A stretch of DNA of 47,513 nt, counting the filler, from Jimgerdemannia flammicorona (Eukaryota), in NCBI GenBank assembly GCA_003990765.1. It is 2 parts of 2 records of this genome, joined end to end, with 100 filler letters (N's around TTAATTAATTAA, not from the genome) between each part and the next. Parts side by side here need not be neighbours in the genome. Positions count along the whole stretch, not along the records: positions 23,809 to 47,513 come from RBNJ01001075.1; 1 more part is not named here. One strand, written 5' to 3'. Position numbers and translations under genes: made by a program. Position 1 is the stretch's first letter. Every line of letters starts with the position of its first letter. Under the pieces are notes generated by a model. It ran no database searches. It had not been told where the DNA came from and saw nothing but the letters and a program-made list of their open reading frames with translations. Below are positions 8,401 to 47,513 of the stretch, piece after piece.

Positions 8401-8520
8401 TCTAGAATATTATTATGAATAGTATCAATACTTAGCAGATATAAATCATACTTGAGGAGACTAAAGATATCATTTAATTAGTTACTCTTAATAGTTATAA
8501 ATAATTGATTTATATATTGT
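5500..8520 (-). mobile_element. Older, truncated and strongly mutated hAT transposon copy (transposase pseudogene ~6400-8500)
   Basis: Collinear with 11500-14620 of the complete hAT (e.g. 6840 cttcagccagaaccttgt = 12964; 8450 cttgaggagactaaagat ~ 14567). Differences are mostly C>T/G>A. Confidence 0.85.
5650..6305. repeat. Tandem array of ~8 units (~90 bp) internal to hAT copy 1
   Basis: Recurring core gctacttgagattgctc...gcagatagagggctgcaaattctatatactctctct; homologous to 11640-12350. Confidence 0.85.
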
Positions 8521-24914: not shown

Positions 24915-26093
24915 ATGAAGCCCTCGAACAACCCCCCTCTCTCACGACCACTGATTCTCTTGACCGCCATGCTAACCCTTCTGGCCGAAGCGAGCCTCGC
25001 ATACCCAACCACAGGAAACAGGTAAAAATCAACCTCACGCTCCCCATTACGCTACGCCACCTCTCTCTCCCAATAGTTTCCTCACCTGTCTCCCCTCCCC
25101 TCCCCTATTCCCCCGCGTCCCCCCAGCTCGCACGCCTCGGCAAAACGCGCTCCAGACATCTACTCGTCTGACGGCACAGTGCTGATCTTTGTGGTCGTGA
25201 CAATCGCAATCATCTTGCTGAGTTGCTGCGCCTGCGCGTGGTACCAGAACAGCCGGTACATCCGCGAACAGAACGAACAGAACCGCGACGCCCCACCAGT
25301 TCGGCTCGAACCCATCGTCCCCCAAGACCCGACTATAGACGATGATTCATCTGTGAATCCATCTTCTTTTGCACCGTCGCCGTCGCCGCCGTATAATGCG
25401 ATACCGGCCGCAGGAGAGAGCGTAGTGGCCGTTGGGCCGAATGGAGCGCCCGTCAGTGGGGCTGGTGGAACACCGGCCGAGGGAGAGAGCGTGGTGGCCG
25501 TTGGGCCGAATGGAGCGCCCGTCAGTGGGGCTGGTGGAACACCGGCCGAGGGAGAGCGCGTGGTGGCCGTTGGGCCGAATGGAGCGCCCGTCAGTGGGGC
25601 TGGTGGAACACCGGCCGAGGGAGAGCGCGTGGTGGCCGTTGGGCCGAATGAAGCGCCCGTCAGTGGGGCTGATGGAACACCGGCCGAGGGAGAGCGCGTG
25701 GTGGCCGTTGGGCCGAATGAAGCGCCCGTCAGTGGGGCTGGTGGAACGCCGGCCGAGGGAGAGCGCGTGGTGGCCGTTGAGCCGAATGAAGCGCCCGTCA
25801 GTGGGGCTGGTGGAACGCCGGCCGAGGGAGAGCGCGTGGTGGCCGTTGGGCCGAATGAAGCGCCCGTTGGTGGGGTTGGTGGAACGCCCGAGGGAGAGCA
25901 CGTGGTGGCCGTTGGGCCGAATGAAGCGCCCGTCAGTGGGGCTGGTGGAACGCCGGCCGTTGGGTCTGATGGAACGCTGGCCGTTGGGTCTGATGGAACG
26001 CCGGCCGTTGGGTTGAGTGGAACGTCGGCCGGTGGGTCTGATGAAACGCCGGCCGTTGGACTGGGTGGAACGTCGGGCGTTGGGACCGGATAG
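24915..26093 (+). CDS. Two-exon gene for a signal-peptide, single-pass membrane protein with a cytoplasmic 23-aa tandem repeat
   Basis: Exon 1 24915-25021 (MKPSNNPPLSRPLILLTAMLTLLAEASLAYP), intron GT 25022..AG 25126, exon 2 25127-26093 in frame. KR dibasic site, TM segment VLIFVVVTIAIILLSCCACAW, then repeats of AVGPNGAPVSGAGGTPAEGERVV. Confidence 0.8.
25413..26080 (+). repeat. Coding minisatellite: ~7.5 x 69 bp followed by ~5 x 24 bp
   Basis: Unit gagagcgcgtggtggccgttgggccgaatgaagcgcccgtcagtggggctggtggaacaccggccgagg; then gccgttgggtctgatggaacgccg. Confidence 0.95.
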
Positions 26094-27470
26094 AGTCGAG
26101 GGGAGGTGGATGGACAGTGTGTGGTTGCGGTGTTTGTCGGTGGACACGGATTATTGTTATTCTTTAGACTGTTGTAATTATTTTGTTGCGGTAAAATTCC
26201 TATGAAATGCTTTGTTGCGGTAAATTCCTATGAAATGTTTTTATGATATGTACAGTCCACATTCGCCTTACATTTCCGTATTTATTTTTTTTCCCTTAAA
26301 CAAAAAGGTATCATTCTGCATGTCCCATATTTTGCTCTCTCCCTTCCTTTATTTTATTTTATTTTATGATGGCATTTGGCTACTCGGATTTGACCAATGC
26401 CGCAAAAAAAAAAAAAAAACAAAAAACAAAAAACAAATCGAAGAATATACTGCCATTATGTCGACGCCGTTCATTAAAATGCACCTGCCGCGATGTTATA
26501 GGGCACACGACGAAATCGACATCCCTGGAACAGGCAATCGCATGAAAACGCAATATATTATGCTACCGTTAGTTGTCATACCGCTACGGGATTGAACCAT
26601 GAAAAAGTATGCGCTAAAGACTTTTGCGATATATAAAATGGTTTGTATAAAATATGCATGTAACCATTTGCATGGCGGTCTGGGTATAATTGGTATAATT
26701 GTGGGGTATGTGATTGGACCGGTGTTTCGGCGATCACTGTCTCGAGCATCACGACAACTTTAAGGACATTGGGCTCGTGCCGTAGTACGTCCAGATCGAC
26801 GGGCACATATACCTCAGGTATGGGACTGGTGAATATGAACATGGATCAATTGTAATTATTTTTTTATCTTCGCTCGTAGTTACCCACGATTTCCGAAATC
26901 CCGTCCAAAAATATGGAGTATATGCTTTGCCAATTATAAAACATTTTGAATTATGGATTGGACGGGTGCTTTGGCGGACAGAACCAATGACCGTGTTTTT
27001 GGCTTCACGACAACTTTCCTTAAGGACATTGGGCTCGTGCTGTAGTATATACGTCCAGATCGACGGGCAGATAACCCTCCAGGAGGAAAAAAAAAGGGGG
27101 GGACTCGCAATTTGATACTGGTGAATATGGACATGGATAAATTGTTAATCTTCCCTTGTAGCAACCCACGATTCCCGAAATCCCCGTTCGTATGTGCACC
27201 AATAGACGCACATCTACATTTACTGTCTGCCAACATTTCGCCATTTTTGTACTGTGATGAACTCATTTATGTGATAAATATACTTTATTTATATTCTTCG
27301 AATTGTCGCTATGGCGACATCGATGATTCCTCCATTGGTAGCCACAAAGTCCCCATCAAACAAAAGTGATTCAAGCATGGCTCTAATTCCCCTGACATCT
27401 GTTTTGATTTCTTCGACGTCCGTCTTGATGTTCTCAAAGTACGTCTTGATCTGTGTTCGCCTTGCTGCTC

Positions 27471-28595
27471 TCATCGCCGTCGCCCGTCTTGGTGACATGC
27501 ATCGGCGATTTGCTTCCTGATATCTTCAATCTGTTTCTCGAGGTCTTCGATGGCATCGATTGCGCGAATAAGCAACGTGCTGGCATTGTCTGATAACAGT
27601 GATTTGGATACCGATATCATTATCATATACTATGCATAATTAAATAAAATATATTAAAATGTAACTACTCACCTTCCTCGACCATTATAAACAAGCGCCC
27701 GGCATCGTATAATTCGCCTAATAATTGAAGTGCCTTACGATTTGTTTGGACAAATCGTCGTACTTTTTCGGAAGCATTTTTAGGAAATCCTAAAAAGATA
27801 TACAAGGTTAACGAAAGTAAAAAATTGTGTTCACGAAGTGTATGAAATACTTTAAAGGACTTGGCATACATACCGACAAAAACGAAAGCAAAAACATCGC
27901 ATGCCTCCAATTCGGAATCGTTTCTTGCTTCCCTCTGCGCAACAAGCAGATAACAGAGATCTCGCTCAAGCTGAAGAAGCTTTTGGTCACACAATTTCGG
28001 GTCTTTTGATACTTCGCCTACGATATATCGTTGAGGTTCCGTATCCGAGAAAGGCGATTGACTCCGTTCCGACCTACAAAAATATTTAGAAAATTAAAAA
28101 GTGTACAAAATAAACTTTGATATTACAGACATAATGAAAGACGTACCCATCATGCATTATCTCCATCTTCGGATTTAGGTTCTTCATTCTCGAGTCTTGT
28201 TTAAAAGCGATTTCATCGGTAGCATTGACAATTGCTACAATATCTACCTCGAAATTATTGAAACCAAGTGCGTCTCGTTCGGCATCTGGGGTATCTTGCC
28301 AGAGTTGTACGAAGGACTTTGCCTCTTTTAAGGATGCTTGTGATCCCTTCTTTTTGAGAGTTAAGTGTGTCGAGTTTAGGGGCGGTGCTTGAGGTTGATC
28401 TATGTCGTTGTCTCGCTTTTTGATATAATTTTTTGTCTCCTCGATGGTGGTTACGTTGTCAAAAGTGCGTCCATCGACTTTCAGACCTTGAACGCAAAAA
28501 CCGATGGATGACAACGAGAGTTCTTCTTTAAGAGTGCGCCGACAAATATCCTCGTATAAATCCGCGGCTTGTTTTATAAGAGCAAGAGCCGTCAT
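27471..28595 (-). CDS. Paralogue A: 4-exon gene (~294 aa) with a putative PD-(D/E)xK-like nuclease domain and a short coiled coil; frameshifted heptad remnant downstream to ~27290
   Basis: Exons 28595-28147, 28073-27874, 27789-27673, 27589-27471 splice in frame with GT-AG; motifs LYEDICR, FEVDIVA, YIVGEVS, KLLQLER. Confidence 0.7.
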
Positions 28596-29379
28596 GATTA
28601 GCACAATGGAATCGTAAGCTCAAGCGCGACCTTATATATGATTTACAAATTTATTTAGCATAGTATATAAACTATTAATAGCACCTCTTGACTCACGATG
28701 ACGATATTTCGTTTATATTAATAGTTGTGAGAATTTGAATTTGAGAATCTCAATCTGAGAACTTATGTCGGAACCTTATATGTCCTTGACGGAACCATAT
28801 TTGTAATTCTTACGCTATGAGTAGGAGCCGCAGCAGAGAGCGGAGGTTAATCCCCCCCCACCCATGACTTGGCAAGGTATGCTAGCAATATACTCTAGTT
28901 TTTTACATGAAAGCTGTAACTGGGTTTGTAGTTCTAGACCCTTTGTCGGTCCAGTAACTATAGGTAATTACAAGCAGTCTTGACATTCCTAATTATGTCC
29001 GTGGGTGCAACTCTATTATTTTTGACCAAGTAACTTTGAGTATATCGCCAAAAGGATTCATCCACTTTTGTTTTCGTGACTCAATGACAACAGATACTAT
29101 GACTACTATGTGAAAATCTCTATAAAAAAAAAAAAAACTCTATTCTTTTATAGAATGTTACCTGGGAGACCAAGATATTATTTTCACGTAATTATATTTT
29201 TCAACGCGTGTATATATATAACTCCACAAAACAGCCATGATAAGAAAATAAAGTTAAAAAAAAAAAGGGGCTCAATCCAATCGTTCCGGCCTTGATGTAG
29301 CAAAGCACTTCACATGACCACCCCCAGATTGCGAACCCTGCATACGAACCGGTCAAATAGGTGTTTGTAAGACATAGGG

Positions 29380-30816
29380 TCCAAAAGCGTATTTGGGCAC
29401 CAAATTCATGGGTCACGCTAAATATTTTGAGTACGTCCACCCTATAGTATTTCGATATCGCTGGCGTCTCGTAGCGCAGGGAAGCGAGTTGTGAACTGAC
29501 GACACATTTGGATACCCCGACAATATCCGTTCACGATGTAGTCCTGGGGCGGGGGCACAAGGGAGGTAAAACTATTGTACCCTGTGCCATATCTTCCGTT
29601 TCGCCAGCACATACGCTCGCCCCAGATCAAATGATTCGCCCTGCGGCTCAGACGGCGATGGTGTTGGTCTGGCCGTTAGTGGTGTCAGACGCCCGACGGA
29701 TGTTGTGCGCTATGCCTTCCTCCACCGTGGCGACTATCGCCGTTCGAATTCGTGACGAGCACCTTTCGTATGCTTATTTGGGTGATGATTGCCGCGGTTG
29801 GCGCGTGCTGGAGGTAATCTCTTGGCGGGTAACTATTTGAAAGATGATTAAAAGATCGATGCAAAATTACGCCCTCATACATCCCCTCAAACAAATTAAA
29901 GAGACAGCGACGACGCAGCATGCAAACATTATCTTTTCATTCTTTTTTGAGGTGGGTGAGTATGATGAGATTTATGCACAACAACCATGCACGACAGCAT
30001 TCAAACCGACTGGATTCAAAACGCTTACCCGCCAAGCACGAGATCCACCTCCCCCACCATCTCCTACGCAAAGATCAGGTCGTTCTGTAGCCGCATGTGG
30101 GTCAGCCCTACCACAATGTCTATAGAGTGTGGGCTCAGACTGGTCGCGTAGCGTTCGTGAGATCGCGCGCCGTATCAAATGTGGAGTGGTACTTGAGGTT
30201 GGGCGAGAAACTGGGGATCGTCACGATTCATTCTGAAGAGGAGATGTGGGTCACTTTATTCGTGATCTAAATTATTCACATGACAAAATCCCCCTTCGCC
30301 TTTACCCTGAACTTACTTCTTGACAAGCCCAATGATGCTGACTTGATGCTACTCTTCTTCCCCTGAAACACGAGGAACTGACCCAGCCGCTTCGGTGGTT
30401 CGCCCGTGACCTCGTCCAGGAAATTGAACAGCAGCCAGGGGAAATTGGTTTCGATGATCAGCTTCTGCAAGTCGGGCACGCCAAAGTCGACGTCAAGGTT
30501 CCCCGCCAGGGAGGTGGCTATATGGAGCTGGCTCATGATCGAGATCCTATGGAGTGAAGCATAGAATGTTGGTGGGCCTGTGCCAGCCGAATCAACGACA
30601 ATTGTGTCAAAAGAAGGGAAGAGATACGTGCATGTGGTGCCCCAACGTAATGGAGCTCTCAATGTTCGAGCTGAACACATCGCCACTGAACAGCACCCAG
30701 TGATTCTCGTCTGGTCCTTCCTCGTCGAGACGGGGTTTATGGTGGTGGCGCAGCGAGCGGCTCCTTTTTCTGTTAAAGTGCCCGAGGTTGAATTTTTGAG
30801 GCACCATGACTGTCAT
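29380..30816 (-). pseudogene. 5'-nucleotidase (calcineurin-like metallophosphoesterase) remnant
   Basis: VLFSGDVFSSNIESSITLGHHM (~30630-30700), GNLDVDFGVPDLQKLIIETNFPWLLFN (canonical GNHD changed to GNLD), IVTIPSFSPNLKY (~30190-30230). Frameshifted, and the 3' extent is uncertain. Confidence 0.8.
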
Positions 30817-31072
30817 AACAATGGTCGTTCGTTCGTGGGAAGAGCATCGTCTGGAGTGCCTTTTGTTTTTTCGCGACGCGTTATATCACGTGACTGAACT
30901 GATGCCAAGTCCAATTGTTGTTTTTGTTCCTCGGAATATATTCTGTTCTATGATTCTACGATGTTGATGAGAAATTTCCTACTCACGAGGTACTGATCAC
31001 TGAGAATTCACTTTTTTTTTTTTGAAAATTGCAAATGTAGCGTTGAAGATTGCCTTTTGCTGTAAATCCTAT

Positions 31073-31106
<34 letters not shown>

Positions 31107-32124
31107 AAATTAAATTAAATTAAATAAAATAAATATACATAAAAACATTACCAAAGTTAAAGTCGGTCAATTGATATAGAATATTTAGTGCAACATTAAA
31201 GTAAAAATCGTGGCCACAGTTGTGTCGAGGACACTTGACGTGGCGATAGTTTTGCCCCTTATGCTTGAACCGGAGGAGAGGAAGAATACAATAGTTGTAT
31301 CACAACGTAATTACATTGGAGAAATTACTCAATTATTGCATAATTCACGACGATTAAGACACGTCCGACGGTAGAGCAACCGTGGCGGTGAGAGATCAAA
31401 ACGCCTGTCGGCAACCTATACGTCCGAGCTTGCGCCCGTGACTGTCGCGATTCGAATTTGATTAATGCAATATATGCGGTATTACGGGACGCACGGCGAA
31501 ATCGACATCCTTGTTCGCGGAACTTGCGACAGAATCGTATGAAAAGCATATATATACGCGACGGCCCATATTATGCTACACCATTATTTGTCATATAAAC
31601 CACGAAACCGACCTCAGCCACTAAGGGACTGAAGCATGAAAAGTATGCGTCAAACAGTTTAACATCTTGTAAACATTTTGTATGAATATGTATGCAACCA
31701 TTTGTGTATAATCATGGTGCTTCGGCACAATCAAATGACTGTCTTCGCTTCACGACGACAACTTTCCTTAAGGACATCGGGTTCATGCTGTATCCGGATC
31801 GACAGACAGATGACCCTCCGGAAGGAAAAAAAGGGGGGAGGAGGAAGCAAGACGGTTTCACAATTTGATATGGGTGAATATGGATATGGATAAATTGTAA
31901 TTTATTTTTGTCTTCGCTCGTAGCTACCAAAATTCCCGTTCGCATGTACGCCAATAGACGCACATCTACGTTTACTATCCTCGCCATTTTTGTACTGAAC
32001 GCGAATGGTGAACTCATTCATGTGATAGATATACTTTATTTATATTCTTCGAATTGTCGCTGTGGTGACTTCTCCATTGATAACCCATTCCATTGGTAGT
32101 TATAAATTCCCTCAACAAAAGGAT

Positions 32125-34492
32125 TCAAGCATGGTTTGATGCTCTCGACGTTGGTCTTGATATTATCAACGTCCGTTTTGGTTTTTTCCACCACGGCAAT
32201 TTTGGTTTCTTCGTCCGTTTTGCTGCTTTCAATTTTTTACCGTCCGACTTGACGTTCTCGACGTCCGTCCTGATCTCATCGTCCGTCTTGACGTTTTCAA
32301 TGTCCGTCTTGATCTCTTCGTCTGTCTTCCGCGTCACTCTTGATTTTGGTTTCTTCGTCCGTTTTGCTACTTTCAACTTTTTACCGTCTGACTTGACGTT
32401 CTCGACGTCCGTCTTGATCTCATCGTCCGTCTTGACGTTTTCAATGTCCGTCTTAATCCCATCGTTTGTCTTCCGCGTCACTCTTGATTTTGATTTCTTT
32501 GGCTGAATTAATGCCCTCAACATCTCAATGTTCGTCTTGACGTTCTCAACATCCGTCTTGATCTCATCGCCTGTCTTGACGTTCTCAATGTCTGTCTTGA
32601 CGTTTTCAATGTCCGTCTTGATCTCACCGTCTGTCTTCCGCGTCACTTTCGATTTTGATTTTTTCGGCTGAATTAATGCTCTCAACATCTGAATGTTCGT
32701 CTTGATGTTCTCAACATCCGTCTTGATCTCATCGCCCGTCTTGACGTTCTCGATGTCCGTCTTGATTTCATCGTCCGTCTTAAGGTTCTCAATATCCGTC
32801 TTGATCTCATCATCTGTCTTCCGCGTCACTTTTGATTTTGATTTTTTCGGCTGAATTAACGCTCTCAACACCTCAGTGTCCGTCTTGACGTTCTCAACAT
32901 CCGTCTTGATCTCATCGCCCGTCTTGACGTTCTCAATGTCCGTCTTGGTCTCATCGTCCGTCTTGACGTTTTCAATATCCGTCTTGATCTTATCGTCCGT
33001 CTTCCGCGTCACTTTTGATTTTGGTTTCTTTGGCTGAACTAATGCTCTCAATACCTCAATGTCCGCCTTAACGTTCTCAACATCCGTCTTGATCTCATTG
33101 CCCGTCTTGACGTTCTCAATGTCCGTCTTAATCTCATCGTCCGTTTTGCTGCTCTCAACGTCTGTATCGTTCGTATCGATGCTAGCGTCTGTATTGATGT
33201 TCTCAGTGTCCGTATTGATGTTCTCAACGTCCGTCTTGATATTCTCAGCGCCCTCCACCATTTTCGAATCGCCGATTTGATTCTTGATAACTGCAATTTC
33301 TTTTCCGAGTTTTTTGACAACATCGAATGCGTGAAGAAGGACCGTACAGGCATTTCCTGATAACAATGATTTGGATACAATTGTTAGTATTATATTATAA
33401 TTCATGTTTGAAAATATTATATTTAAAATATAACTACTCACTTTCTTCAACCATGATATAAAAACGCTTGGCGTTATATAATTCGTTTAACAATTGAGTT
33501 GCCTTACGATGTTGTTGCAAATATGACCGTATTTTGTCAGCCACGTCTTTAGGAAATGCTGAAATATATTCAAGATTAACGAAAGTAAAAAAGTAAAAAA
33601 ATTGCATAAAATACTTTAAGGACGTGGTATACATACCGACAAAAGCCAGGGCAAAAACATCGCATGCCTGCAATTCGGAATTGTTTCGTTTTTTTCTCTG
33701 CTCAACAAGCAGATAACAGAGAATTCGCTCAAGTTGAAGAAGCTTGTGGTCACACAAATTCTCGTTCACTGATACTTCACCCACAATATATTGTGATATA
33801 GAAGGACGAGGTTCCATATCCGAGGAATTCGATTGACTCGGTTCCGAACTATAAAGGATGTTAAGGAAATTAAATAGTGTATACTATAAACTTTACTAAA
33901 TAAATATATAATAATAAAAAACATACCTTTTGGATTTTTTGGCCTTTTTCGAATTTATGGAAATCATTCTCGACTTTTTTCCGAAAGCGATTTGTTCGGC
34001 AACATCGACGTATGCCAAAATATCTGCCTCCAACTTATCGAAAGAAAGCCCACCGGTGTTCTTTGACTCGGTATCTTTCCAGAGCTGTGCGAAGGACTTT
34101 TCTACCTCATTTAAAGGTTGCTGTGCGAGATCGTCAATCGGTTGTCGTTCTTTGATATACTGTATTGTTTCGTCGATGATGGTTTTGTCGTTAAAATTGC
34201 GTGCTTCGAAGTTCTCATCTTGAGCGCAAGAATGGAAAGATGACGATGAGAGTTCTTCTTGAAGAGTGTGCCGGCACACGATTTCGTATAAATCTCCCGC
34301 TTGTTTGGAATAGGAAGCTTGTCGGGCAGCTTGTTGAGCAGCTTGTTGGGCAGCTTGTTCAACTTGTTTGGAAAGAATAGACAATTGTGCAGCTTGTTGT
34401 GAGAGAGCAGATAATTGTGCAGCTTGTAGCGTAGCTTTTTGTGCAGCTTGTTTTGCAGCTTTTTGCGCAGCTTTTGGTGAAAGAGTCGCCAT
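32125..34492 (-). CDS. Paralogue B: intact 4-exon gene (~708 aa): N-terminal QAAQ repeats, putative PD-(D/E)xK-like nuclease, long KTD(V/I)EN(V/I) heptad array, basic tail
   Basis: Exons 34492-33927, 33848-33637, 33558-33442, 33356-32125 total 2127 nt and are open throughout; canonical splice sites at the same positions as in A, C and D. Confidence 0.85.
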
Positions 34493-36145
34493 TATGATTA
34501 GCGTAATAGACAAGGAAATCGTGAGCTCAAGTGCGACCTTATATATCGATTTGTATATTCAATTATTGTTGCATATAAACTAATAATAGGATCTAATGAT
34601 AATAATTAATATAATAGAATTTCCCTAACAGAATAAGGGATTACAAGTCTATCTCGCGACTTGGCGACGTTTATGTAACATCATGTGGTCCGAATCGTGA
34701 TTACGTGAATTACTCAATCTGAGAGTTCATGCCGGAAATTTGAAAAGTCATTGACGGCACCCACATTTAATTCGAAATTGGAATACTTTACATTATGAGC
34801 AGGAGTTGCAAGTAGCACCTAAAGAGAGCGAAAGTTAATCACACCCTCACGCGACTTTGCAAGGTGTGCTAGCAATATACTCTCATGTAAGCTGAAACTG
34901 GGTTTGTATTTACCATGGTTGGTCAGTCCTACCTGGAATCTCAATTTATTGTGACTTAAAGCAAATGTTTCACAGAAATTGATTGATAATAAAGGGGTGG
35001 GGAAATTGTTGGATCTATGTGAACGTGTTTACTAAAATTCACTATGAAAAGCGTCTGGAGACGACCAGGGGAGCCTGAAAAATGACCTGTCGTAAGGGGA
35101 TTCCTGGGATATCTGATCCCTGCTTGAATGCACCCGTTCTGCTACTTCCAGATTTCAAGACTGCTCCTTTATTTGCAAGGCTATACAACCCTTATTTATA
35201 TATACATAATTTCAATACTAAAAATATCATACTAGATGGAGATCCCCCGTAAGCCCGTATATACTCCCTTCGGAGAACCGTTTCAGAGCCTCCCTCGCGC
35301 GGTTCAAGGCACGTGCCCCTCCCTTACAGATCACTGTAGCGGTTCCACAGAAATTGATCGATGATCAAGGGGACGGAAATTGTTTGATCTATGTGGACGT
35401 GTTTGGTAAGGAATTCGCTATGAAATGCGTCTGGGAGAGCCTGAAAAGCAACCTGTCATAAGGGGATTCCTGGGATATCTAATTTTGCACGATGTATTGC
35501 CAAAAGCATTCATCCATTTCCGTTTTTGTGGCTCAATAATGATAGACACTATGACAACAATTTAACTATGTAACAGTCTCCATTATTGAATAACTTTTCG
35601 GGAATTTTTTTTTTTTTGATACCAAGTTAAGATATTATTTTCCAGCCTGATGACAAACTCGTGATCATTAATAAGCATATTCGCACAGTTTTGAATTGCT
35701 AATTAAATCAAAGTACTGGTATCGCGAAGGACGACACGCTTCAAATCACGAGTTGGCGGCACATGCCGCTTGGTTCACGTTACTCCGCCAAGATACCCTC
35801 TAAACAACCATGCCTCGGAGCGCACAGGATTTCAAGTATGAGTTTCTGAAGTGACAGATACGGTTCCGCTTCGGTTTTCAATACTTTTGGCATGCACATG
35901 ATATTGTGACGCACTTGGAGATCTTTCGTCGGCATACATCATTTGCACATACTATCCAGACCTGGAATGAATAGCTCCTATTATGTTATTGTACGTAATC
36001 GCGATTCGGACCTCATGAATAACCCCTATTCTGTTAGTAAAATTATATTATATCAACGATTGTCATCAGATTCTATAGTAATTGAAATATGTAAATCAAT
36101 ATATAAGGTTGCACTTGAGCTCACGATTCTCTTGTAATCATAACG

Positions 36146-37805
36146 ATGACTCCGACGACTCTTTCTGCACAATTATCTGTTCTTTCAGAACAAGCTGCCC
36201 GACAAGCTGCCCGACAAGCTTTTTATTCCAAACAAGCGGCAGATTTATACGAAATTATTTGCCGGCACACTCTTCAAGAAGAAATCTCGTCGTCATCCTT
36301 CCATTCTTGCGCTCAAGATGAGAACTTCGAAGCACGCATATTTAATGACAAAACCATCATCGACGAGACAATACAGTATATCAAAGAGCGACACCCGGTA
36401 GACGACCTCGCACAGCAACCTTTAAAAGAGGCAGAAAAGTCCTTCGCACAGCTCTGGCAAGATACTGAATCAAAGGACACCGATGGTCTTTCTTTCGATA
36501 AGTTGGAGGTAGATATTCTGGCGTACGTCGATGTTGCCGAACAACTCGCTTTCGGAAGAGAGTCGAAAATGATTCCCATAAAGTCGAAAAAGGCGAAAAA
36601 ATACAATAGGTATATTTTTCATTGTTATAATTTATATGTTTAATAAAGTTTATGTTAATTTCCTTGACATCTTTTATAGTTCGGGAGCGAGTCAATCGAT
36701 TTCCTCGGATATGGAACCTCGTCCTTCTACATCACAATATATCGTGGGCGAAGTATCATGGATGCAAATTTGAGTGACCACAAGCTTCTTCAGCTTGAGA
36801 GAATGCTCTGTTATCTGCTTGTTGAGCAAAGAAAACGACGAAGCAATTCCGAATTGCAGGCATGCGATGTTTTTGCCCTGGTTGTTGTCGGTATGTACCG
36901 CATTCTTTAAAGTATTTTATACATTTCCTACACGTTTTTTTATTTATTTTATTTTATTTTATTTTATTACATTCGTTAACCTTGATATACTTTCAGCATT
37001 TCCTAAACATGTCAGCAGAAAAATACAGTCATATTTGCAAAAACATCGTAAGGCAATTAGATTATTAAATGAATTATTTGATGCCAACCGTTTTTATATA
37101 ATGGTTGAAAAAAGTGAGTAGTTATATTTAAATATAATCTATTTAAACATGAATTATTATATAATACTAACAATGATATCCTATTTACTGTTATCAGGAG
37201 ATGCCTGTATGATGCTTCTTAACGCATTCGATGATGTCAAAAAACTCAAAAAAGAAATTGCAGTTGCCAAGAATAAAATCGGCGATTCAAAGATGGTGGA
37301 GGACGCTGAGAACTTTAAGATGGGCGTTGAGAGCATCTATACCGACGGTGAGCTCAAGGCGGACATTAAGAACGTCATGACCGACGATGAAGTCAAGACG
37401 GACGTTGAGATGTTGGAAACATTAAGTCAGCCGAAGAAATCAAAATCAAAAGTGACATGGACGACGGACGATGAGATCGAGACGGACTTTGAGAACGTCA
37501 AGACGGACGATGGGATTAAGACGGATGTTGAGAACGCCAAGACGGACGATGAGATCAAGACGGACGTTGACATGTTGAAAGCATCAAGTCAGCCGAAGAA
37601 ATCAAAATCAAAAGTGACGCGAAAGACGGACGATGAGATCAAGACGTGGGGGATCGGTGGAACGCATAGCTGGTGTCCAAATACGCTTTTGGTCCATCTT
37701 ACAAACGCCTATTTGACCGGTTCGTATGCAGGTGCAGGGTTCACAATCCGAGGGTACGGTCATGTGAAGTGCTTTGCTGCATCAAGGCTGGAACGATTGG
37801 ATTGA
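36146..37805 (+). pseudogene. Paralogue C: frameshift right after GEVS, and 3' end fused to unrelated sequence
   Basis: gaagtatcatggatgcaaatttga (~36750-36773) lacks 1 nt relative to B/D, giving a stop; the heptad exon switches at ~37646 into the block also found at 29270-29400 and 45120-45270. Confidence 0.75.
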
Positions 37806-38751
37806 GCCTACCATTACTAGTTGCGTCGTTTCGAGGTGTACGGCTTTGACTTTTTTTTTTACTTTATTTGGCTTCCCATGGCTGTCGTGGTCCTCGTTAC
37901 TGGCGTAAGTGGGTCAACCCATGTGCATAATACCCTTTATTACATTACCGGAAGGATTCGCTTGAAGAGAGGGATCTCAAGTTGTGATCTCCGGAAGTAT
38001 GTAGCGGGACCGCGTCTCTCACTTCAGAAACTCAAGCTTGAATCCTGTGCGATCCGAGGCATGGTTGCTTAGAGGGAGTAACGTGAAACAAGCGGCATGT
38101 GCCGCCAACTCGTGATTTGAAGCTCACGATACCAACACTTTGATTTAATTAGCACAGATATGCCATTCAAACTGTGAATATGCTTATTAATGATCAGGAG
38201 TTTGTCATCAGGCTGAAAAATAATATGTTGGTCTCGGAGTAAACATGTTATCAATCGTTTTTTTTCCTCAATAATGGAGACTGTTACATTGTTAAATTGT
38301 TGGCCACAAAAGCGGAAATGGATGAATACTTTTGGCGATTCATCGTACAAAATTAATAAGGAGCACAGACATACCACCCCCCTTTCCCAAAGGCCGATTT
38401 TGTGGTAGTACTCGGATATTAATTACAAGGGATCCATCCTCGAACTTTATTTGATAAATCTCAGTACATGTACATAATGCCCCGAATGACTCCAATATGA
38501 ATTAAATCTTCATTCGAATTCGACCTTCGGGCCGGACCGTCGGCGGTAATCCAACATTTGCTTACTATTATGTTATTAAATTTATTTGCACGTAATCACA
38601 TGAATAACCCCTATTCTGTTAGTAGATATTCTAGTATATCAACGATTGTCATTATATCCTATAGTTTATATGTCACAATAATTGAATATGTAAATCAATA
38701 TAAAAGGTCGCACTTGAGCTCACGATTTCCTTGTCTATTGCGCTAATCATA

Positions 38752-40242
38752 ATGGCGTCTCTTTCACCAAAAGCTGCGCAAAAAGCTGCAAAACAAGCTG
38801 CACAAAAAGCTGCAGAACAAGCTGCACAATTATCTGCTCTTTCACAACAAGCCGCACAATTATCTATTATTTCCCAGCAAGTTGAACAAGCTGCCCAACA
38901 TGCTGCCAAACAAGCTGACCGACAAGCTGCTTATTCCAAAGAAGCGGGAAAATTATATGAAGTTATTTGCCGGCACACTCTTCAAGAAGAAATCTCGTCG
39001 TCATCCTTCCATTCTTGCGCTCAAGATAAGAACTTCGAAGCACGCAAATTTAAAGACGAAGCCATAATCGACGAGACACAACAGTATATGAAAGAGCGAC
39101 AACCGATTGACGACGCCGAAAAGTCCTTCGCACAGCTCTGGAAAGCTACGGGAGAGACGGGCGATGGAATTTCTTTCGATAAGTTGGAGGCAGATATTTT
39201 GGCAAACGTCAATGTTGCCGAACAAGTCGCTTTTGGAAAATTAAATTCGAGAATGACGTTTTTCATTATTATATATATATATTAGTAAAGTATATATTAT
39301 ACACTATTTAATTTCCTTGATATCTTTTATAGCTCAGAATCGAGTCAATTGAATTCCTCGGATATGGAACCTCGTCCTTCTACATCACAATATATTGTAG
39401 GCGAAGTATCAGTGAATGCGGATTTATGTGACCACAAGCTTCTTCAGCTTGAACGAATGCTCTGTTATCTGCTTATTGAGCAAAGAAGGAAACGAAACAA
39501 TTCCGAATTGAAGGCATGCGATGTTTTTGCCCTGGCTTTTGTCGGTATGTATACCACGTCCTTTAAAGCATTTTATACATTTTCTACTTGTAGATGCATA
39601 TATATATATGTGCATTTGTTAACTTTGAATATCTTTCAGCGTTTCCTAAAAATATTGTCGACCAAATACGGTCATATTTGCAAAAACATCGTAAGGCAAT
39701 CCAATTACTAAACGAATTATTTGATGCTGAGCGTTTTTATATAATGGTTGAAGAAAGTGAGTAGTTATATTTTAAATATAATCTATTTAAATATGAATTA
39801 TTATATAATACTAACAATGGTATCCAAATTGCTGTTGTTAGGAAAAGCCCATACTGTGCTTCTTCGCGCATTCGATGTTATCAAAAAGCTCGAAAAAGAA
39901 ATTGCAATTATCAAGAATCAAAGCAGCGATTCGAAGATGGTGGAGGGCGCTGAGAACATCAAGAAGGACTTTGAGAACATCAATACAGACGTTGAAGGCA
40001 TCGAGAACATCGATACGGATAATACGGACGTTGAGAGCAACAAGACGGACGATGAGATCAAGGCAGACATTGAGAACATCAAAACGGACGATGAGATCGA
40101 GACGGACAATGAGAACGTCAAGACGGAAGTTGAGAAGTTGAAACCAGCAAAACGGACGAAGAAACAAAACCGGCCGTGGTGGAAAAAATCGAAACGGACG
40201 TTGATAATCAGACCAACGTCGAGAGCATCAAGCCACGCTTGA
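38752..40242 (+). CDS. Paralogue D: 4-exon gene with a shorter heptad array; first donor site altered by a deletion
   Basis: Highly similar to B. A deletion near 39255 removes the GTAT donor, leaving an in-phase weak GTTTTT donor. Exons 2-4 are intact and the gene ends SRASSHA*. Confidence 0.65.
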
Positions 40243-40603
40243 ATCACTTTTGTTGAGGGGAATTTATGACTACCAATGGAGTTATCAGTGGAGAGGTCAC
40301 CACAGCGACAATTCGAAGAATATAAATAAAGTATATCTATCACATAAATGAGTTCAACATTCGCATTCAGTACAAAAATGGCGAAATATTGTTGGCGGAG
40401 GGACAAGGACAGTAAACGTAGATGTACGTCTATTAGCGACGACATAATTAAATTACGATTTATCCATGTTTCCCCTTTATTTTTTCCATGGAGGGTTATC
40501 TGCCTGTTGATCCGGATACAACATGAAACCGATGTCCTTAAGGAACGTTGTCGTCGTGAAGCGAATAGACAGTCATTTTATTGTGCCGAAGCACCATGAT
40601 TAT

Positions 40604-43363
40604 TGTTGTGACGAACAGAAGAAGCGATTTATTCATAAATACAAATCGTGCGCTTTTAGGCGCTGTAATGATGATGTAAAACGAATTGGCGTAAAGTCAC
40701 GTGGATACATATCGACTTGTAATCCCAACACTCCTGCTCAAGGAGATATGTACGCCAAAACAAAAAAAAGAATATCATTGCAATCTGCAATAAAATACAA
40801 ACTAGAGTAAAAAAAGCAATGCAACATATGCAAAAAACTAGAACTGCATATAACCCAAATTACAACTAGAAATCCTACATCTAAGGAATTTTTCGCAGGT
40901 CGAAAAGTGTTCTGAAATACCTGTAATACCCAAAGAAATGCAAAATGCATGTGGATAACGCAAATAAAGGGGTAATGTGAATGTCAAATATATATGCAGT
41001 ACAAGAGACTTTTAAGTGCCTGAAAAGTGTCCCATGATAAACCGCTAGACTTTGCCAAAATGCTGGTGTAGAGGGTGCATTATCCTGTAATGTTCAAAAA
41101 AGTCCCATTTGCTCATCACAATATTCCTCATCGTAGTATTCAGACTCGCCATCAGACTCATTGTAGTCTTCAAACTTGTCATAACATTGGTCGTTGAGGT
41201 CCCAATCAGCATTACAGGAGCTGGATAACTGTATACCACTCCCGCTTAATCTATTATCATTTCCATTGCCACACAGAGTGACTGTATAGTTCGCCATTCC
41301 TTTAATATACCTATTCTCATTCTCAAGAAGTGTTGTTCCTGATGAGAGAGCCATATTTGTCCATAGCCTTTTCCACTCTTTGCTGTTGGAGAGATTCATG
41401 GCTTCATACATGCTGTTTGTGGTACTGTGGTCGATGGTTGTTGTTTTGGTAGTTGCTTTTTTGACTCTTTTGGCAGTTGCCTTTTTGGCAGTTGAATATC
41501 ACCATTATCTAGGTTTGTCACAGATTGTTTAACTGGCATTGACAGTGGTTATTGCACTGCTTGTACTGCTTGTACTGGATGTTATTACTCTTTTGGCAGT
41601 TGCTCTTTTGGAGAGAATTTCTCATCGCTGGAAGTTTTGCCATCCTGAATTTCAATTATTCTAGGCTCGAGATGCACTGGCAGTTGCCAATACATTTCTG
41701 TTAACTGTTACATTTACACTGTTTTCTCAGGTTGTACTGGATGTTGTTGTGCTGATTGTTGTGCTGTTTGCACTGAATGTTGTTGTCCTGAAGATGTTGT
41801 CATTGAAGCCGTTGACAGTTGTTTTTGCCATTTGCGCTAGATGTTGCACTGGTTGTTGCCCCATTTAATCAGCATTGGCTGTATTGTTAGCATAATTGCC
41901 AGTTGTTGCTGGATACATATAAGTCGTTGATATCAGGTATAATGTCGCTTGACGTAGTTGTCGAGTTAGCCCAGATATGGATGTCATTCGGGGTTGACAT
42001 AGTTGTCGAATTCGAGTGCTGGTGGATAGCATACTGTGCTTTTGGAGATGTCAATGTAATTGTCATATTCACATGCTGGCATATAGCGTATTTGCGGACA
42101 GGTATGCCATTAATTGTATATAGGTTGCCTTTTTTGATGCTGTCATTAGTCGCCTTTGGCCGTTGTATATTGTCGCACCTTTTGAATGTAAATGTATTTG
42201 CTTGTTTCCACGTGACATAATCTTTCCTATTGAGAATAAATTCTTCTTTAAATCAGGAGCATAGAGGACATCATATAGTGTGCTGGTCATCAGTTGCCTA
42301 ACGTTGCTATACAATTCCATGTTGACGTTGCCTTGTCCTTTGACATAAATGATGTTGTTATTTCCCATTTCTATAGGGATCGATTCCTTGAACTCCTTGT
42401 ATGTGCTGAACCATTCGCAGTGCAGCATCATATGCTGTATTGTGCCGAAGTCTATTAGCCAGATATCGTCGTTATCATCAGCTGAGTTGGAGCTTTCATT
42501 GTTGCTGATGTCACCACGTTTCGGGTGAAGCAGGTGTGGCTGACCTGTAGATGTCAGGTTGGTGGTAGAATTTGCACTGGTAGATCTCGTAGAACTGACT
42601 GTAGACCTGATGCTGGCAGGACTTTTCGTCAGTTCAAAAGTATATCCCGAATTAGGTCCTAAATCAGCATATGCATAGGTTGCTTGCGTGTAGAATAGAC
42701 CATCCTTGTTGCCAGTTTCGGCGGTATAGTTGGCTTGGCCACTCTGGCTCTTGCCATTCCAATTATTTTCACCGCGTTGTTCATGTAGTCGGTGATAATC
42801 TTCACTGTGGTTCTTTTTACTATAGCATTCCCTTTCACAGTGTCCATGTTTCCTGTAGGACTTGCAGTTACCTTTGAACTTTGCATTTCCGCGTTGAGCT
42901 TGGGTTTGGGTTCGTCCGCGTTGGCCTCGTTTTTGCTGGTCTCGCATGTACTGGCCTCGTTGGTCTTTTCCATGACCTCGTGAGCTGTAAAAGGCTTTTT
43001 CATTGTCATCATAATTGCCTTGACCACTGAGCGGGCATAATCGCCTGCCACCTGGGAGGGCTTCTTTGTTGTTGCCATCTGGATTGTCCTCTTGACCACA
43101 CTTACAGCAGCGGGGACTTGCGACTGTCATTGCCATTATGCGTACATGCTTAGATCATAGTGTATGCTTAGAGGATCGTTGGATCTTGTCTAGCAGAATA
43201 TTTTCTTAATGACTAGTGCTTCTCTTAGCAACTATCGGGGCTCATAACCTATGTTGTGACGAACAGAAGAAGCAATTTAGGCGCTGTAAATGATGACATA
43301 CAAATGATGTAAAACGAATTGGCGTAAAGTCACGTGGATACATATCGACTTGTAATCCCAACA
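40604..43363 (-). mobile_element. Internally deleted Ty1/copia LTR retrotransposon (2.76 kb)
   Basis: LTRs 40604-40730 and 43252-43363 (TG...CA); TSD ATTAT (40599-40603 and 43364-43368), with the empty site visible in the paralogous block at ~31700; PBS GGTTATGAGCCC; PPT TGAGCAGGAG; gag knuckle CKSYRKHGHCEREC, protease WLIDFGTIQHM, LYDVLYAPDLKKNLFSIGK. No integrase core or RT is recognisable. Confidence 0.95.
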
Positions 43364-44687
43364 ATTATACACAAATCGCTTTGACAAATGGTTACATACA
43401 TATTTACAAAACGTTTCCAAGATGTTAAACTGTTTGGCGCATACTTTCGTGCTTCAATCCCGTAGTGGCTGAGGTTGTTTCGTGGTTTAACGTCGGGTGT
43501 ATATATGTTGCTTTTTTATACGGTTGCCTGTCGCAAATTCCGCGAACATGACAGGATGTCAATTTCCCGTAATACCACAATGTATTTGACCGTGTTGGGA
43601 ACGGCGTCAACATAAATTACAGAATATAATATTTTTTGGGGACATTAGTCAAATCCGAATAGCCAATGCACAGCGAGCGCCATTATGTTCCTGCGCGTCG
43701 CAAGCTGCCACAGTCCTACCACCCCTTTGATCGGGGAGCCAGAGAGATTGGACGTATATGTTGCCGATAAGCAATGTTGCTTATTTGCAGTTCTCCGGTC
43801 CTCCGGTTCAGCAACCTCTAAGATATAAGGGGCACTGCGGCCACAACTTTGCTTTATTCGTTGGAAAGCTGATTGCCTTAAAGTGAGTGTAAGAATTACA
43901 CGGCATCAATGGGCGTGTTTTGCCCCTTGTTCCGGTTTCAATTTTCAGTTTTCTTTTTTCTTTTTTCCGACAAAAGCTGAACAATCTCAACCATATAACA
44001 ATATTGTCCGACGAATCTCCTCTACTACGGTGAATACCCATGGATTCAAGTAAAAATTAATAATATGTATTGGTCTTTTCTACGTGTTTGCTTGATGCTT
44101 TTTATTTGATTCATAGAGAGGCGAATGGCAGCTTGGACGCCTTGATGCTTATAATTGAGACCAATGTGAGGCTATTACTCGAACTCATATTGCTTAAATT
44201 TTACCTAGCTTATCCTAAATGCTTTGCGCATAATTCTCATACGTAGGACACGTGCCGCGTTCCATCGAAACAACAATTGGTAATATATGCGGATTTCTAC
44301 CATGAAGCAGCGGTCTGACTCGGGAAGCAGGAAGAAGCGAAAAGGTGAGAATCGGCGCCAAAATGGGTATATACGATATGGAAAGCATATTTATACACAA
44401 AGTTAATGAAAACAAAGAGCGGTAAAGGTTGGATGATCAGCAGGTAATGGAGATAAACAACATGCCTTGACAGGCTTCATTCTGCACGAAACCTAGCGAG
44501 ATTTCCTTATCGAAAACACACCCCATGGTCACTTTGTATACCATGCCCCTCTACTACCGACATTCCTTCTGTTGAGAATGCACCCCATGGCAACTTTATA
44601 TACCCTGCCGCAACAACGAACTGCAGAAATTCCCCCCTCTGCCAAGGTTCCATTTACCGCAGTTCCAGCTGAGAATGCACATCAAGG

Positions 44688-45140
44688 ACCATTGGGCTTG
44701 TCAAGAAGTATATACGTTTAAGGGTAAAGGCTAAAGGGGATTTTGTCATGTGAATAATGAAGAGATCACGAATAACGTGACCTACATCACCTCTTCAGAG
44801 AATGAATCGTGACGATCCCCAGTTTCCTGCCCAACCTCAGGTACCACTCCACGTTTGATACAGCGCGCGATCTCTCACGAACACTACGCGACTCGTAATC
44901 TTATTTCGAGAAAAAAAAAAAAAAAAAAGGCTGCTAATCAGAGAGTGATTGACGTTACAAGTAACATTTACTGTGCAAGGGATATTGTTGGGGTATCCAA
45001 ATGTGTGGTCAATTCACAAATCACTTCACTACACTGCGAGACGCCAGCGATGTCGGAATACTATAGGGTGTATGCACTCAATTGCCTCCGAAATATTTAA
45101 CATGACCTGTGAATTTAGTGCCCAAATACGCTTTTGGTCT
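44688..45140 (+). pseudogene. Second, more deleted fragment of the 5'-nucleotidase-containing block
   Basis: 44688-44895 is the reverse complement of ~30143-30335; 44980-45140 is the reverse complement of ~29380-29530. Confidence 0.7.
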
Positions 45141-45325
45141 CCGGTTCATATGCAGGTATGGCCATGTGAAGTGCTTTGCTGCACCAAGGCTGGAACGATT
45201 GGATCGAGCCTACCATTACTATTTACGTCGTGTCGAGGTGTACCGCTTTGACTCTTTTTTTTTACTTTATATGGATTACCATGGCTTTTTGTGGAGGTTT
45301 ATACCCGCATTGAAAATGTAATTAC

Positions 45326-45495: not shown

Positions 45496-45935
45496 CCATA
45501 TCCGTCATAATACCCTTTATTACATTACTGGAAGGATCCCCTACTTGTAATAGACCGAGATCGTGACTGGCTCCCCGCGACTTGGCAAGGTATGCTAACA
45601 ATATACTCTATGTAAGCTGAAACTGGGTTTGTTTCTGCCATCGTTGGTCAGTCCTACCTGGAATCTCAATTCACTGTGGCTTAGAGTAAGCAAATGTTGG
45701 ATTATGCCGACGGTTCGGGGTATTAAGTATATGTACTAAGATTTATCAAATAAAGCTTGAGGATGGATTCCTTGTAATATCCGAGTACTACCACAAAATT
45801 GGCCTTTGGGAAAAGGGGGGCGTATGTCCGTGCTCCAGGGTCATGTATAACTCTATTATTTTCGACTAATTTTGTACGATGTATAGCCAGAATTATTCAT
45901 CCATTTCCATTTTCGTGGCCAGACAATTTAACTAT

Positions 45936-47513
45936 TGTAACGTGCCGGCTCAATGGAGGCAAATTACAAGGTTGGGGGTTGATGTAGTTTGGCTTGAGCC
46001 CCCAGTTACTTTGTTAAAAGCAACAAAATGTTCTTGGTGTTTAGCGGTATAATAGTCAAAGCTGGATATCTGTGAGCGATTTCCTTATTGGGACTGTTCT
46101 CTGGGTGTAGCGGCGATTTGTGTGGGTGGGTTTCCTTCTGGGAATGGCACAATTTCTGTGTAGCGCGACGATCTCCTTGTGCGTGACGGTCTGGCAATTT
46201 AGCGGTTCTCCTTATGCGATTTCTGCGTGACGATCTCTGTGTAGCACGACGATCTCGGTAGCGCAACGATCTCTGTGTAGCGCGACGATCTTTGTGTAGC
46301 GCGGTGGGTTCCTTATACAGGTCAACTGGGAACGCGGCGATCCGGTGGATAACTCGATTTGGGTTCACTGGGAATTGTATGGCATGGGTTCTTCTACACC
46401 GGGCTTACTGGGAATTATCTCGGGTGGCAGATAACTCGATAACTCAGGCTCACTGGGAATGACGAATAACTTGGATGGCGCGGATTCTTCTAAATCGGCG
46501 GCTTCAACTGGGAATACGGCGGATTAACTCAAAAGGCGGCAGATGACGCGGATTCTCCTGGATCGGCGGGCTTCTGGAAAATAACTTGGGTGGTGCGGAT
46601 TCTTCCTGAATCGGCGGCTTTAACTGGGAATGCGGATAACTCAAGAACGGCGGTTTCAACTGGGAAAGCGGATGGCGGCTTTTTTGGGAAAGGGTCTCTT
46701 GGCAAAGTTACGTCAAAGACTGGCTTCGTTTGCGCGACGAATCACTGCGAAGTTGCATCAGAAACTGGCTTAAGCAAGGCGGCTTTCTTTTTGGCGGCGG
46801 AAAAGGCGGAAATCTTCAGGCTTATCTGGCAAGCGAACCAAGGGCTTCTCTTCAAAGGCGGCGAAGTTCTTCTTGAACTTAGGCGGCAAGTCTTCAGGCT
46901 TATCTGGCAAGCGAACCAATCAATCCAAAGGCGGCGAAGTTCTTCCTTGAACTTGGCAGCGAAATCAGCTTTGTATCGGAAAGTGGACTGGAGTGGGAAT
47001 AAGGGGACCAATTGCTCAATCTTTAGAGGCTTCTTTGGTTTGCACTTCAATTCGGACTGAGGTTTTATTCACTCTCACCACTGGGGTAATTTATACAAGT
47101 TGGTTGCTATCTGGTTACTATGTGGCTAACTATAGATCTGCTACTTATGGCAGGTGTACAGAGTCTGTACAGTGTACAGAGTCTGTACAGGTAAACAGAC
47201 CCTTTCTGGTATGTCTGGCTATTTATATAGGTTCCGCAGCAAGGGTTGCTGGTTGCTAAGCTAAGTGTTCATGTCATTTTGTTCACGTCATCTGGTTAAG
47301 ATATGATTCGGGTGGTACGTCTTGGCTTGTCACATTAGCCCCCACTGAAGAGTAGTCTGTCTCAGGCTATTCTTCAGTCATCATCCTAATAAGCATAGGC
47401 TGCTTCTGCATCTATACCTGTTCCATCATCTTCATTGTCTGTACTGGGGTTACTCCATTCTAGAGGCTCTTCTTCTTCTTCAGGGAATAGAATTTCGACA
47501 GAGTTGATGATGC
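45936..47513 (-). mobile_element. Probable Ty3/Gypsy 3' end: ~1.4-kb LTR (45936-47334) with PPT and upstream internal sequence running off the window
   Basis: The minus strand reads cagtgggggctaa|TGTGAC...GTTACA; TATA-like TATATAAATAG ~105 bp into the LTR; homology to the neighbouring duplicated block stops at 45935. No second LTR is in the window. Confidence 0.6.

Follow-up and report, generated by a model that had tools for sequence, protein, structure and literature searches.

A species-restricted tandem gene family in Jimgerdemannia flammicorona, with signs of birth-and-death turnover and a probable restriction-endonuclease-fold core

Results

The window analysed here, a stretch of 47,513 nt from Jimgerdemannia flammicorona (assembly GCA_003990765.1; positions 23,809-47,513 are RBNJ01001075.1), carries a cluster of four homologous genes, referred to as copies A to D. 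J. flammicorona is a zygospore-forming fungus that is ectomycorrhizal with Pinaceae (PMC5729711). Our verdict is that the family is young and undergoes birth-and-death turnover. This turnover, which had been proposed in the initial annotation of the window, is well supported by lesions in A, C and D, by constraint on B and by duplication of a gene-plus-spacer unit. The reading that we favour, in which we place even confidence, is that of a species-restricted tandem gene family in birth-and-death turnover, where the product of copy B is probably an intracellular, nucleic-acid-binding protein with a restriction-endonuclease (REase) fold. The alternatives weighed below overlap in part with this reading.

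Gene anatomy and relatives

Comparison of the window with itself located the four genes within 27.2-40.3 kb, A and B on the minus strand and C and D on the plus strand (Table 1). Their structures are splice predictions from sequence. Each copy has three introns at identical positions, with phases 2,1,1, a length of 70-106 nt and 70-85% AT, and all four contain the motifs LYE, E(A/V)DI, YIVGEVS and KLLQLER. Core identity is 77-82% within B/C/D and 53-54% for each of these against A. Among 203 ungapped columns 72 are invariant, and two invariant runs of 7 residues exceed the shuffle expectation (p=0.0016). The number of xAAQ-like units in the first 70 residues is 0 in A, 8 in B, 2 in C and 7 in D. 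The initial annotation had described four paralogues in this range and on these strands, the shared intron positions and motifs, a (K/Q)AAQ N-terminus that is absent in A, short in C and long in B and D, and one copy pseudogenised beside GEVS. Each of these features was recovered, the last as a 1-nt deletion just after GEVS in C, and the description is correct because gene anatomy, motifs and invariant runs were all verified.

A phmmer search of 1.84 billion representatives returned 25 matches, 2 to the core and 23 only to the coiled coil, and detected no relative of the core outside J. flammicorona. No relatives of the core were found in viral contigs, metagenome contigs, prokaryote genomes or plasmids, and Rfam gave no match. 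Four phage records matched the core at E 2-9 and were dismissed as chance. The possibility that the family is a conserved single-copy housekeeping gene in relatives was checked: it is not such a gene, and the core relatives detected all lie within J. flammicorona.

Table 1. Coordinates of the gene copies, their parts and the flanking elements (positions along the window)
Feature	Position	Strand	Description
Copy A	28595-27471	-	exons 28595-28147, 28073-27874, 27789-27673, 27589-27471; 294 aa
Copy B	34492-32125	-	exons 34492-33927, 33848-33637, 33558-33442, 33356-32125; 708 aa
B N-terminal (K/Q)AAQ repeat	34310-34483	-	12-nt period
B putative PD-(D/E)xK core	33443-34291	-	LYE 34291, EADI 34030, YIVGEVS 33790, KLLQLER 33745, then strand-helix-helix-strand
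B C-terminal repeat	32125-33247	-	7+6-residue acidic units, frame-shifted basic blocks, frame-shifted basic terminal tail
Copy C, pseudogene	36146-37646	+	1-nt deletion near 36759, stop 36771-36773
Copy D	38752-40242	+	411 aa only if the weak in-frame GT at 39258 serves as donor
A 3' flank, part of tandem unit	26376-27288	-	homologous to B 3' flank 31493-32050 and D 3' flank 40330-40603, resuming 43362-43666
B-A spacer pieces	28749-30334		also present in the C-D interval (37671-37883) and, inverted, right of D (44690-45286)
LTR retroelement relic in D 3' flank	40604-43363		about 110-127-nt LTRs (TG...CA), ATTAT on both sides
LTR, long terminal repeat.

State of each copy

Only in copy B do canonical splice sites occur together with an open frame and with significant purifying selection. 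Copy A has an intact core and no N-terminal repeat, and a frameshift near 27500 cuts its tail short. In its last exon the frame changes twice; the heptad remnant and the ancestral end, at about 27450-27289, are no longer in frame. The exon 2-3 frame of A is 100% identical over the query to a J. flammicorona hypothetical protein, P0001. Copy C lacks its 3' end and is joined to the tandem unit's own spacer at about 37646. A mobile repeat inserted at this end was considered and dropped, the sequence there being the spacer of the tandem unit.

The counterpart of copy D under another locus-tag prefix, P0026, differs from it at 3 of 372 aligned residues, one of them at an exon-skip junction. Relative to this allele-like sequence, 12 codons and the canonical donor of intron 1 are missing from D, which appears to have lost about 40 nt there. 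Copy D therefore differs structurally between the two assemblies. The P0026 model skips exon 3 in frame, which may be a choice of the gene caller, a lesion in that assembly or true exon skipping. The ancestral C-terminal end is still recognisable, out of frame, in A, B and D. A further gene model of the species under the prefix of P0026, P0002, has heptads in frame through to the ancestral end. Its identity to each of the four copies is 50-55%, which makes it a fifth paralogue, so that the family seen so far comprises five paralogues in a single species.

Selection on the copies

A codon model was fitted to 261 columns of the four sequences A-D. A free-ratio model fitted better than a single ratio of nonsynonymous to synonymous rates, omega (twice the log-likelihood difference, 2 delta lnL, 20.3; 4 degrees of freedom). 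The branch omegas were 0.21 for B (p=1e-4 against 1), 1.28 for A (p=0.27), 1.4 for C and 0.63 for D, the last three not significant, and the value for B stayed at 0.12-0.25 whichever of three topologies and three column sets was used. Private synonymous and nonsynonymous changes numbered 16:14 in B as against 21:75 in C and D together (p=0.002). CpG decay was ruled out as the source of the synonymous excess in B, with CpG transitions making up only 2 of the 16 changes. Stops in the core of A were absent, against 9 expected under neutrality, and the lineage of A was therefore mostly kept open. Copy B is clearly kept by purifying selection, and copies A, C and D are damaged or drifting. Two results weigh against our reading: the family-wide single omega is 0.92, not different from 1, and the intron distances of 0.15-0.18 are below the synonymous distances (dS) of 0.18-0.25. 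The low omega of B thus leans partly on a long synonymous branch, and 0.21 may therefore be an underestimate. The dN/dS comparison suggested in the initial annotation showed constraint on B, but A, C and D did not differ from 1 and positive selection was not demonstrated.

The family-wide omega and the lesions in three of the four copies would also suit a history in which all four copies evolve neutrally as relics within a repeat-rich region and owe their spread to segmental duplication only, as would the absence of B, C and the window's D among the gene models matched in protein searches. Such a history is highly improbable in view of the omega of B and of the probability of zero core stops under neutrality, which is 1e-4 for A and 0.011 for B. 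It is further opposed by the last exon of B, which is open over 410 codons and in which the third codon position of the used frame accounts for 14 of 23 variable repeat positions (p=0.006).

The initial annotation had proposed a role in genetic conflict (toxin, drive or non-self recognition). In the corresponding alternative, the family is an active conflict system, a spore or nucleus killer or an allorecognition toxin, and variants in tail repeat length set specificity. The Spok and wtf families share copy-number variation, pseudogenes and variable repeats (PMC12693581), and the structural difference in D between the assemblies is consistent with such a system. Model M2a fits better than M1a, assigning an omega of 4.8 to 13% of sites (p=0.0013), and the A-B nonsynonymous difference (162/601) is greater than the non-coding difference (106/513; p=0.017). 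The M2a signal was rejected as evidence of positive selection because a rate-hotspot null, in which one class of sites evolves uniformly faster but none is positively selected, is an equally good fit (lnL -2005.9 against -2006.5 for M2a). An omega above 1 for A was not significant in either of two tests (p=0.27 and 0.07). In addition, only the five paralogues of one species were seen, the gene carries no kinase domain, and the Lys required for SPOK3 killing (PMC6660238) is Ser here. With no kinase antidote, Crinkler header, signal peptide or demonstrated positive selection, and with significant constraint in one of the four copies, the proposed conflict role was not borne out, and we regard an active conflict system as unlikely.

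Fold and candidate active site of the core

Language-model features and predicted structures make it fairly likely that the core adopts the PD-(D/E)xK REase fold. For residues 105-283 of P0001, the top feature match in ESM Atlas scored 0.92, with 161 shared features, to a cluster in which 31% of members carry DUF6826 and 10% Pkinase_fungal, and all 10 of the best family-bearing matches fell in one family or clan. Eight structure rows had template-modelling (TM) scores of 0.41-0.50: PDDEXK_12, Uma2, DUF7924, two Pkinase_fungal clusters and three unnamed ones. For P0002, 6 of 10 rows were Rpn/Transposase_31, AlwI or DUF4143 families, at TM 0.24-0.30. We take these last families to be PD-(D/E)xK members and the clan of DUF6826 and DUF7924 to be PD-(D/E)xK, and we assume that the Pkinase_fungal proteins were matched through their N-terminal nuclease-like domain. 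In the first of two AlphaFold2 models, which were run on 11 shallow alignment rows, the order from YIVGEV onward is strand-helix-strand-helix-helix-strand.

Several results count against this assignment. The Atlas models are weak (predicted local distance difference test, pLDDT, 0.35, the model behind the rows at TM 0.41-0.50, and 0.43), no TM score exceeds 0.50, and the shared features of the top match are below the 170 typical of same-family matches. The two AlphaFold2 models are of poor quality (pLDDT 49 and 39), and in both the EVDI segment is a helix, not a strand. The core had no nuclease match in Pfam, NCBIfam, PHROGs, PADLOC or PDB sequences. The gap between D157 and E213 of B is 56 residues, compared with a SPOK3 motif spanning positions 219-240 (PMC6660238), and a long insertion is therefore needed for the PD-(D/E)xK reading. 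With the first model (pLDDT 49), Foldseek against PDB and BFVD gave no match at E<=0.001. A VIA wide fold search with the same model gave a best Z of 5.3, and 1 of 48161 chains reached Z>=5. The nuclease-related VIA rows 2okf (Z 4.0) and 8dgf (Z 3.6) were within noise. The REase-fold reading of the initial annotation thus has moderate support from the Atlas neighbours of P0001 and P0002, but not from our own models and fold searches.

If the E...D...GE pattern were coincidental, the protein would be an orphan of another fold. The lack of any significant hit for our models agrees with this, as do the best VIA rows, which (at Z about 5) belong to unrelated proteins of alpha/beta type. However, two Atlas queries that are mutually 50% identical both draw PD-(D/E)xK families, and a different fold seems distinctly unlikely.

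PD-(D/E)xK members carry Glu on helix 1, Asp on strand 2 and Glu on strand 3. The acidic candidates in B are E70, D157 and E213, and E, D and E are invariant in every family sequence. A long Ser-rich insertion, which in B and C includes a basic KKAKK cluster, lies between the acidic motifs. The Lys position of the ExK motif is Ser in 6 of 6 sequences, in agreement with the initial annotation. An invariant Lys (K224 in B) is found 11 residues past the Ser position, at the start of the next helix. Migration of the catalytic Lys to the second core helix is a documented PD-(D/E)xK variant, PD-ExX-K (PMC3424549), and by analogy K224 may replace the missing strand-3 Lys. Inactive PD-(D/E)xK homologues also exist (PMC3424549). 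Together with the Ser substitution and the long insertion, they suggest the alternative of a catalytically dead pseudo-nuclease, the fold serving as a scaffold for nucleic-acid or protein binding with a charged, partly disordered tail. This is possible though rather unlikely: between copies that share about 50-55% identity, none of the three acidic candidates varies, nor do the K, Q and E of helix 2, residues which a dead enzyme need not retain. For the REase-fold protein of our reading, catalytic activity of the rewired site of B is tentative, with a prospect slightly short of even; otherwise the domain would be binding-only.

Repeat tails

The initial annotation had reported C-terminal 21-nt heptads ranging from a remnant in A to a long array in B. 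The remnant in A was seen, out of frame, but the tail of B is not a pure heptad array. It consists of mixed 7- and 6-residue units (39-nt period) inside higher-order units of 183 nt and 144 nt. The tail of P0002 has a hydrophobic periodicity of 3.5 residues, and the long repeat of B has no such periodicity over its length. Because the alternating 7- and 6-residue units break the register, this tail does not form a continuous coiled coil, and the 'variable coiled coil' ascribed to B is largely a broken-register repeat.

The basic blocks of B give acidic heptad-like sequence when read in another frame, and therefore originated in compensated frameshifts, followed by amplification. Copy C also carries a frame-shifted basic block of the B type. 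The shifted basic terminal tail has a net charge of +13 in B and +12 in D over the last 36 residues, and since it is common to B, D and P0026 from the second assembly, it is real and not an assembly error. Within the shifted blocks of B alone, third codon positions account for 5 of 8 variable sites (p=0.09), a weak sign of selection. The locus shows cleanly how frameshifts within a coiled-coil repeat can create a new basic tail. A bolder version of our reading, which we consider very doubtful, would make this a kinase-free nuclease toxin or drive family of an early-diverging mycorrhizal fungus, with a rewired site (Ser at the Lys position, Lys in helix 2), whose specificity or nuclear targeting is tuned by the frameshift-born basic tail, resembling a nuclear localisation signal (NLS). 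In that version the acidic heptad, read in a shifted frame, would yield basic NLS-like blocks. Tandem amplification would then multiply these blocks, and the new frame would be retained.

Organisation of the tandem unit

The flank and spacer pieces listed in Table 1 follow one and the same order in the B-to-A interval, in the C-to-D interval and right of D. The cluster thus appears to have arisen by tandem duplication of a gene-plus-spacer unit, arranged in two head-to-head arms. Among the matches listed (25 of 267), the longest inverted repeats are the paralogues themselves. Spacer segments 35480-35870, 38003-38486 and 45685-45941 are inverted relative to their neighbours, suggesting small local inversions within the array. 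The LTR relic has a Pol_BBD domain in the frame 42072-43154(-), is presumably of Ty1/copia type and was inserted later than the tandem duplication.

A 30-nt block is identical in the 3' flanks of A, B and D (27278-27307, 32029-32058 and 40307-40336). It spans the ancestral stop codon and AATAAA and is in frame in none of the three. It may be a 3'-end signal or reflect gene conversion; taken alone the block is not significant, 0.1 such runs being expected by chance for A-B. In the B-A spacer, 30291-30548 (-) is a degenerate fragment resembling 5'-nucleotidase or cyclic-nucleotide phosphodiesterase (PDB match at E=0.11 only), and the adjoining piece 30143-30334 recurs inverted at 44690-44892.

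Other features of the window

An open frame at 25077-26093 (+) encodes a hydrophobic segment and, after it, eight copies of a 23-residue Gly/Pro/Ala-rich repeat (69 nt, 94% matches) together with 8-residue repeats; it has no Pfam match above the cut-off. The first contig (1-23708) is AT-rich (23-35% GC over most of its length) and nearly free of open reading frames, with degenerate direct and inverted repeats. One repeat pair in it, 6659-8502 and 12785-14618, matches at 66% and has very different GC, which suggests strong mutational decay of one copy.

Discussion

Our data point to a lineage-specific family in which one of the four clustered copies is under constraint. In the mechanism we propose, unequal crossing-over and slippage would add copies and alter repeat lengths, decay being the fate of most copies. 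The B product would stay inside the fungal cell, enter the nucleus via its basic clusters and oligomerise through a short amphipathic helix after the core. It would bind or nick nucleic acid with a rewired site formed by E70, D157, E213 and K224. The family probably descends from conflict-type nucleases. If B turned out to act as a toxin or a drive, it would count as a candidate killer element of a fungus that forms zygospores; otherwise the family is an ordinary decaying lineage-specific one.

Searches of the literature on Jimgerdemannia with Crinkler, and on DUF6826, found no paper. No description of a stand-alone REase-fold conflict protein in Endogonales was found, subscription journals and supplements being outside the coverage, and the available part of the main text of PMC12574304 does not mention Crinkler, effector or nuclease.

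Spok proteins combine a PD-(D/E)xK killing domain with a required Lys, a kinase for resistance and a variable coiled coil at the N-terminus (PMC6660238, PMC12693581). The Jimgerdemannia family resembles Spok of Podospora and Fusarium in its probable PD-(D/E)xK domain, its coiled-coil-type repeat of variable length and its multiple copies with pseudogenes (PMC6660238, PMC12693581). Spok has a cysteine cluster and a C-terminal kinase, and no introns in Podospora, whereas the present family has three introns, its heptads at the C-terminus, Ser for Lys and no kinase. None of the searches returned a Spok sequence. The spliced products end in repeats and have no kinase Pfam match, and a scan for kinase motifs beyond 24 kb gave a single kinase-like match, in a 37-codon frame. 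Without a kinase and without the Lys, the family is therefore not a Spok.

Crinkler proteins carry a ubiquitin-like header with LxLFLAK/LxLWKV and HVLxxP (PMC6131194, PMC5289972). Like the Crinkler and CR proteins with REase toxin domains of oomycetes, chytrids and Rhizophagus (RiCRNs), the present family has a probable REase domain, basic NLS-like clusters, fast turnover and a mycorrhizal Mucoromycota host (PMC5289972, PMC6131194), but it differs in having neither the header motifs nor an NTPase or kinase partner. Exon 1 contained neither LxLFLAK/LxLWKV nor HVLxxP in any of the four copies. A simple hydropathy scan (not SignalP) of the first 45 residues showed no signal-peptide-like stretch, the best 10-residue values being 0.83 for B, 1.09 for C, 0.67 for D and 1.88 for A (from position 25). 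CR proteins can bear unrelated alpha-helical headers (PMC5289972, PMC6131194), and the AAQ helix may therefore be such a header.

The nearest proteins by language-model features and predicted structure are PDDEXK_12 (PF20516), DUF6826, DUF7924, the non-kinase part of Pkinase_fungal and bacterial Uma2. Compared with the fungal PD-(D/E)xK domains, the core has no hidden Markov model match and a TM of <=0.50; it has Ser for Lys and a long insertion between the acidic motifs, and a heptad tail replaces the kinase. The family is probably a new architectural variant of fungal REase-fold proteins. REase-fold conflict proteins such as Crinkler and Spok are normally paired with a header, NTPase or kinase, and a stand-alone version with a heptad tail, if true, would extend this class to Endogonales.

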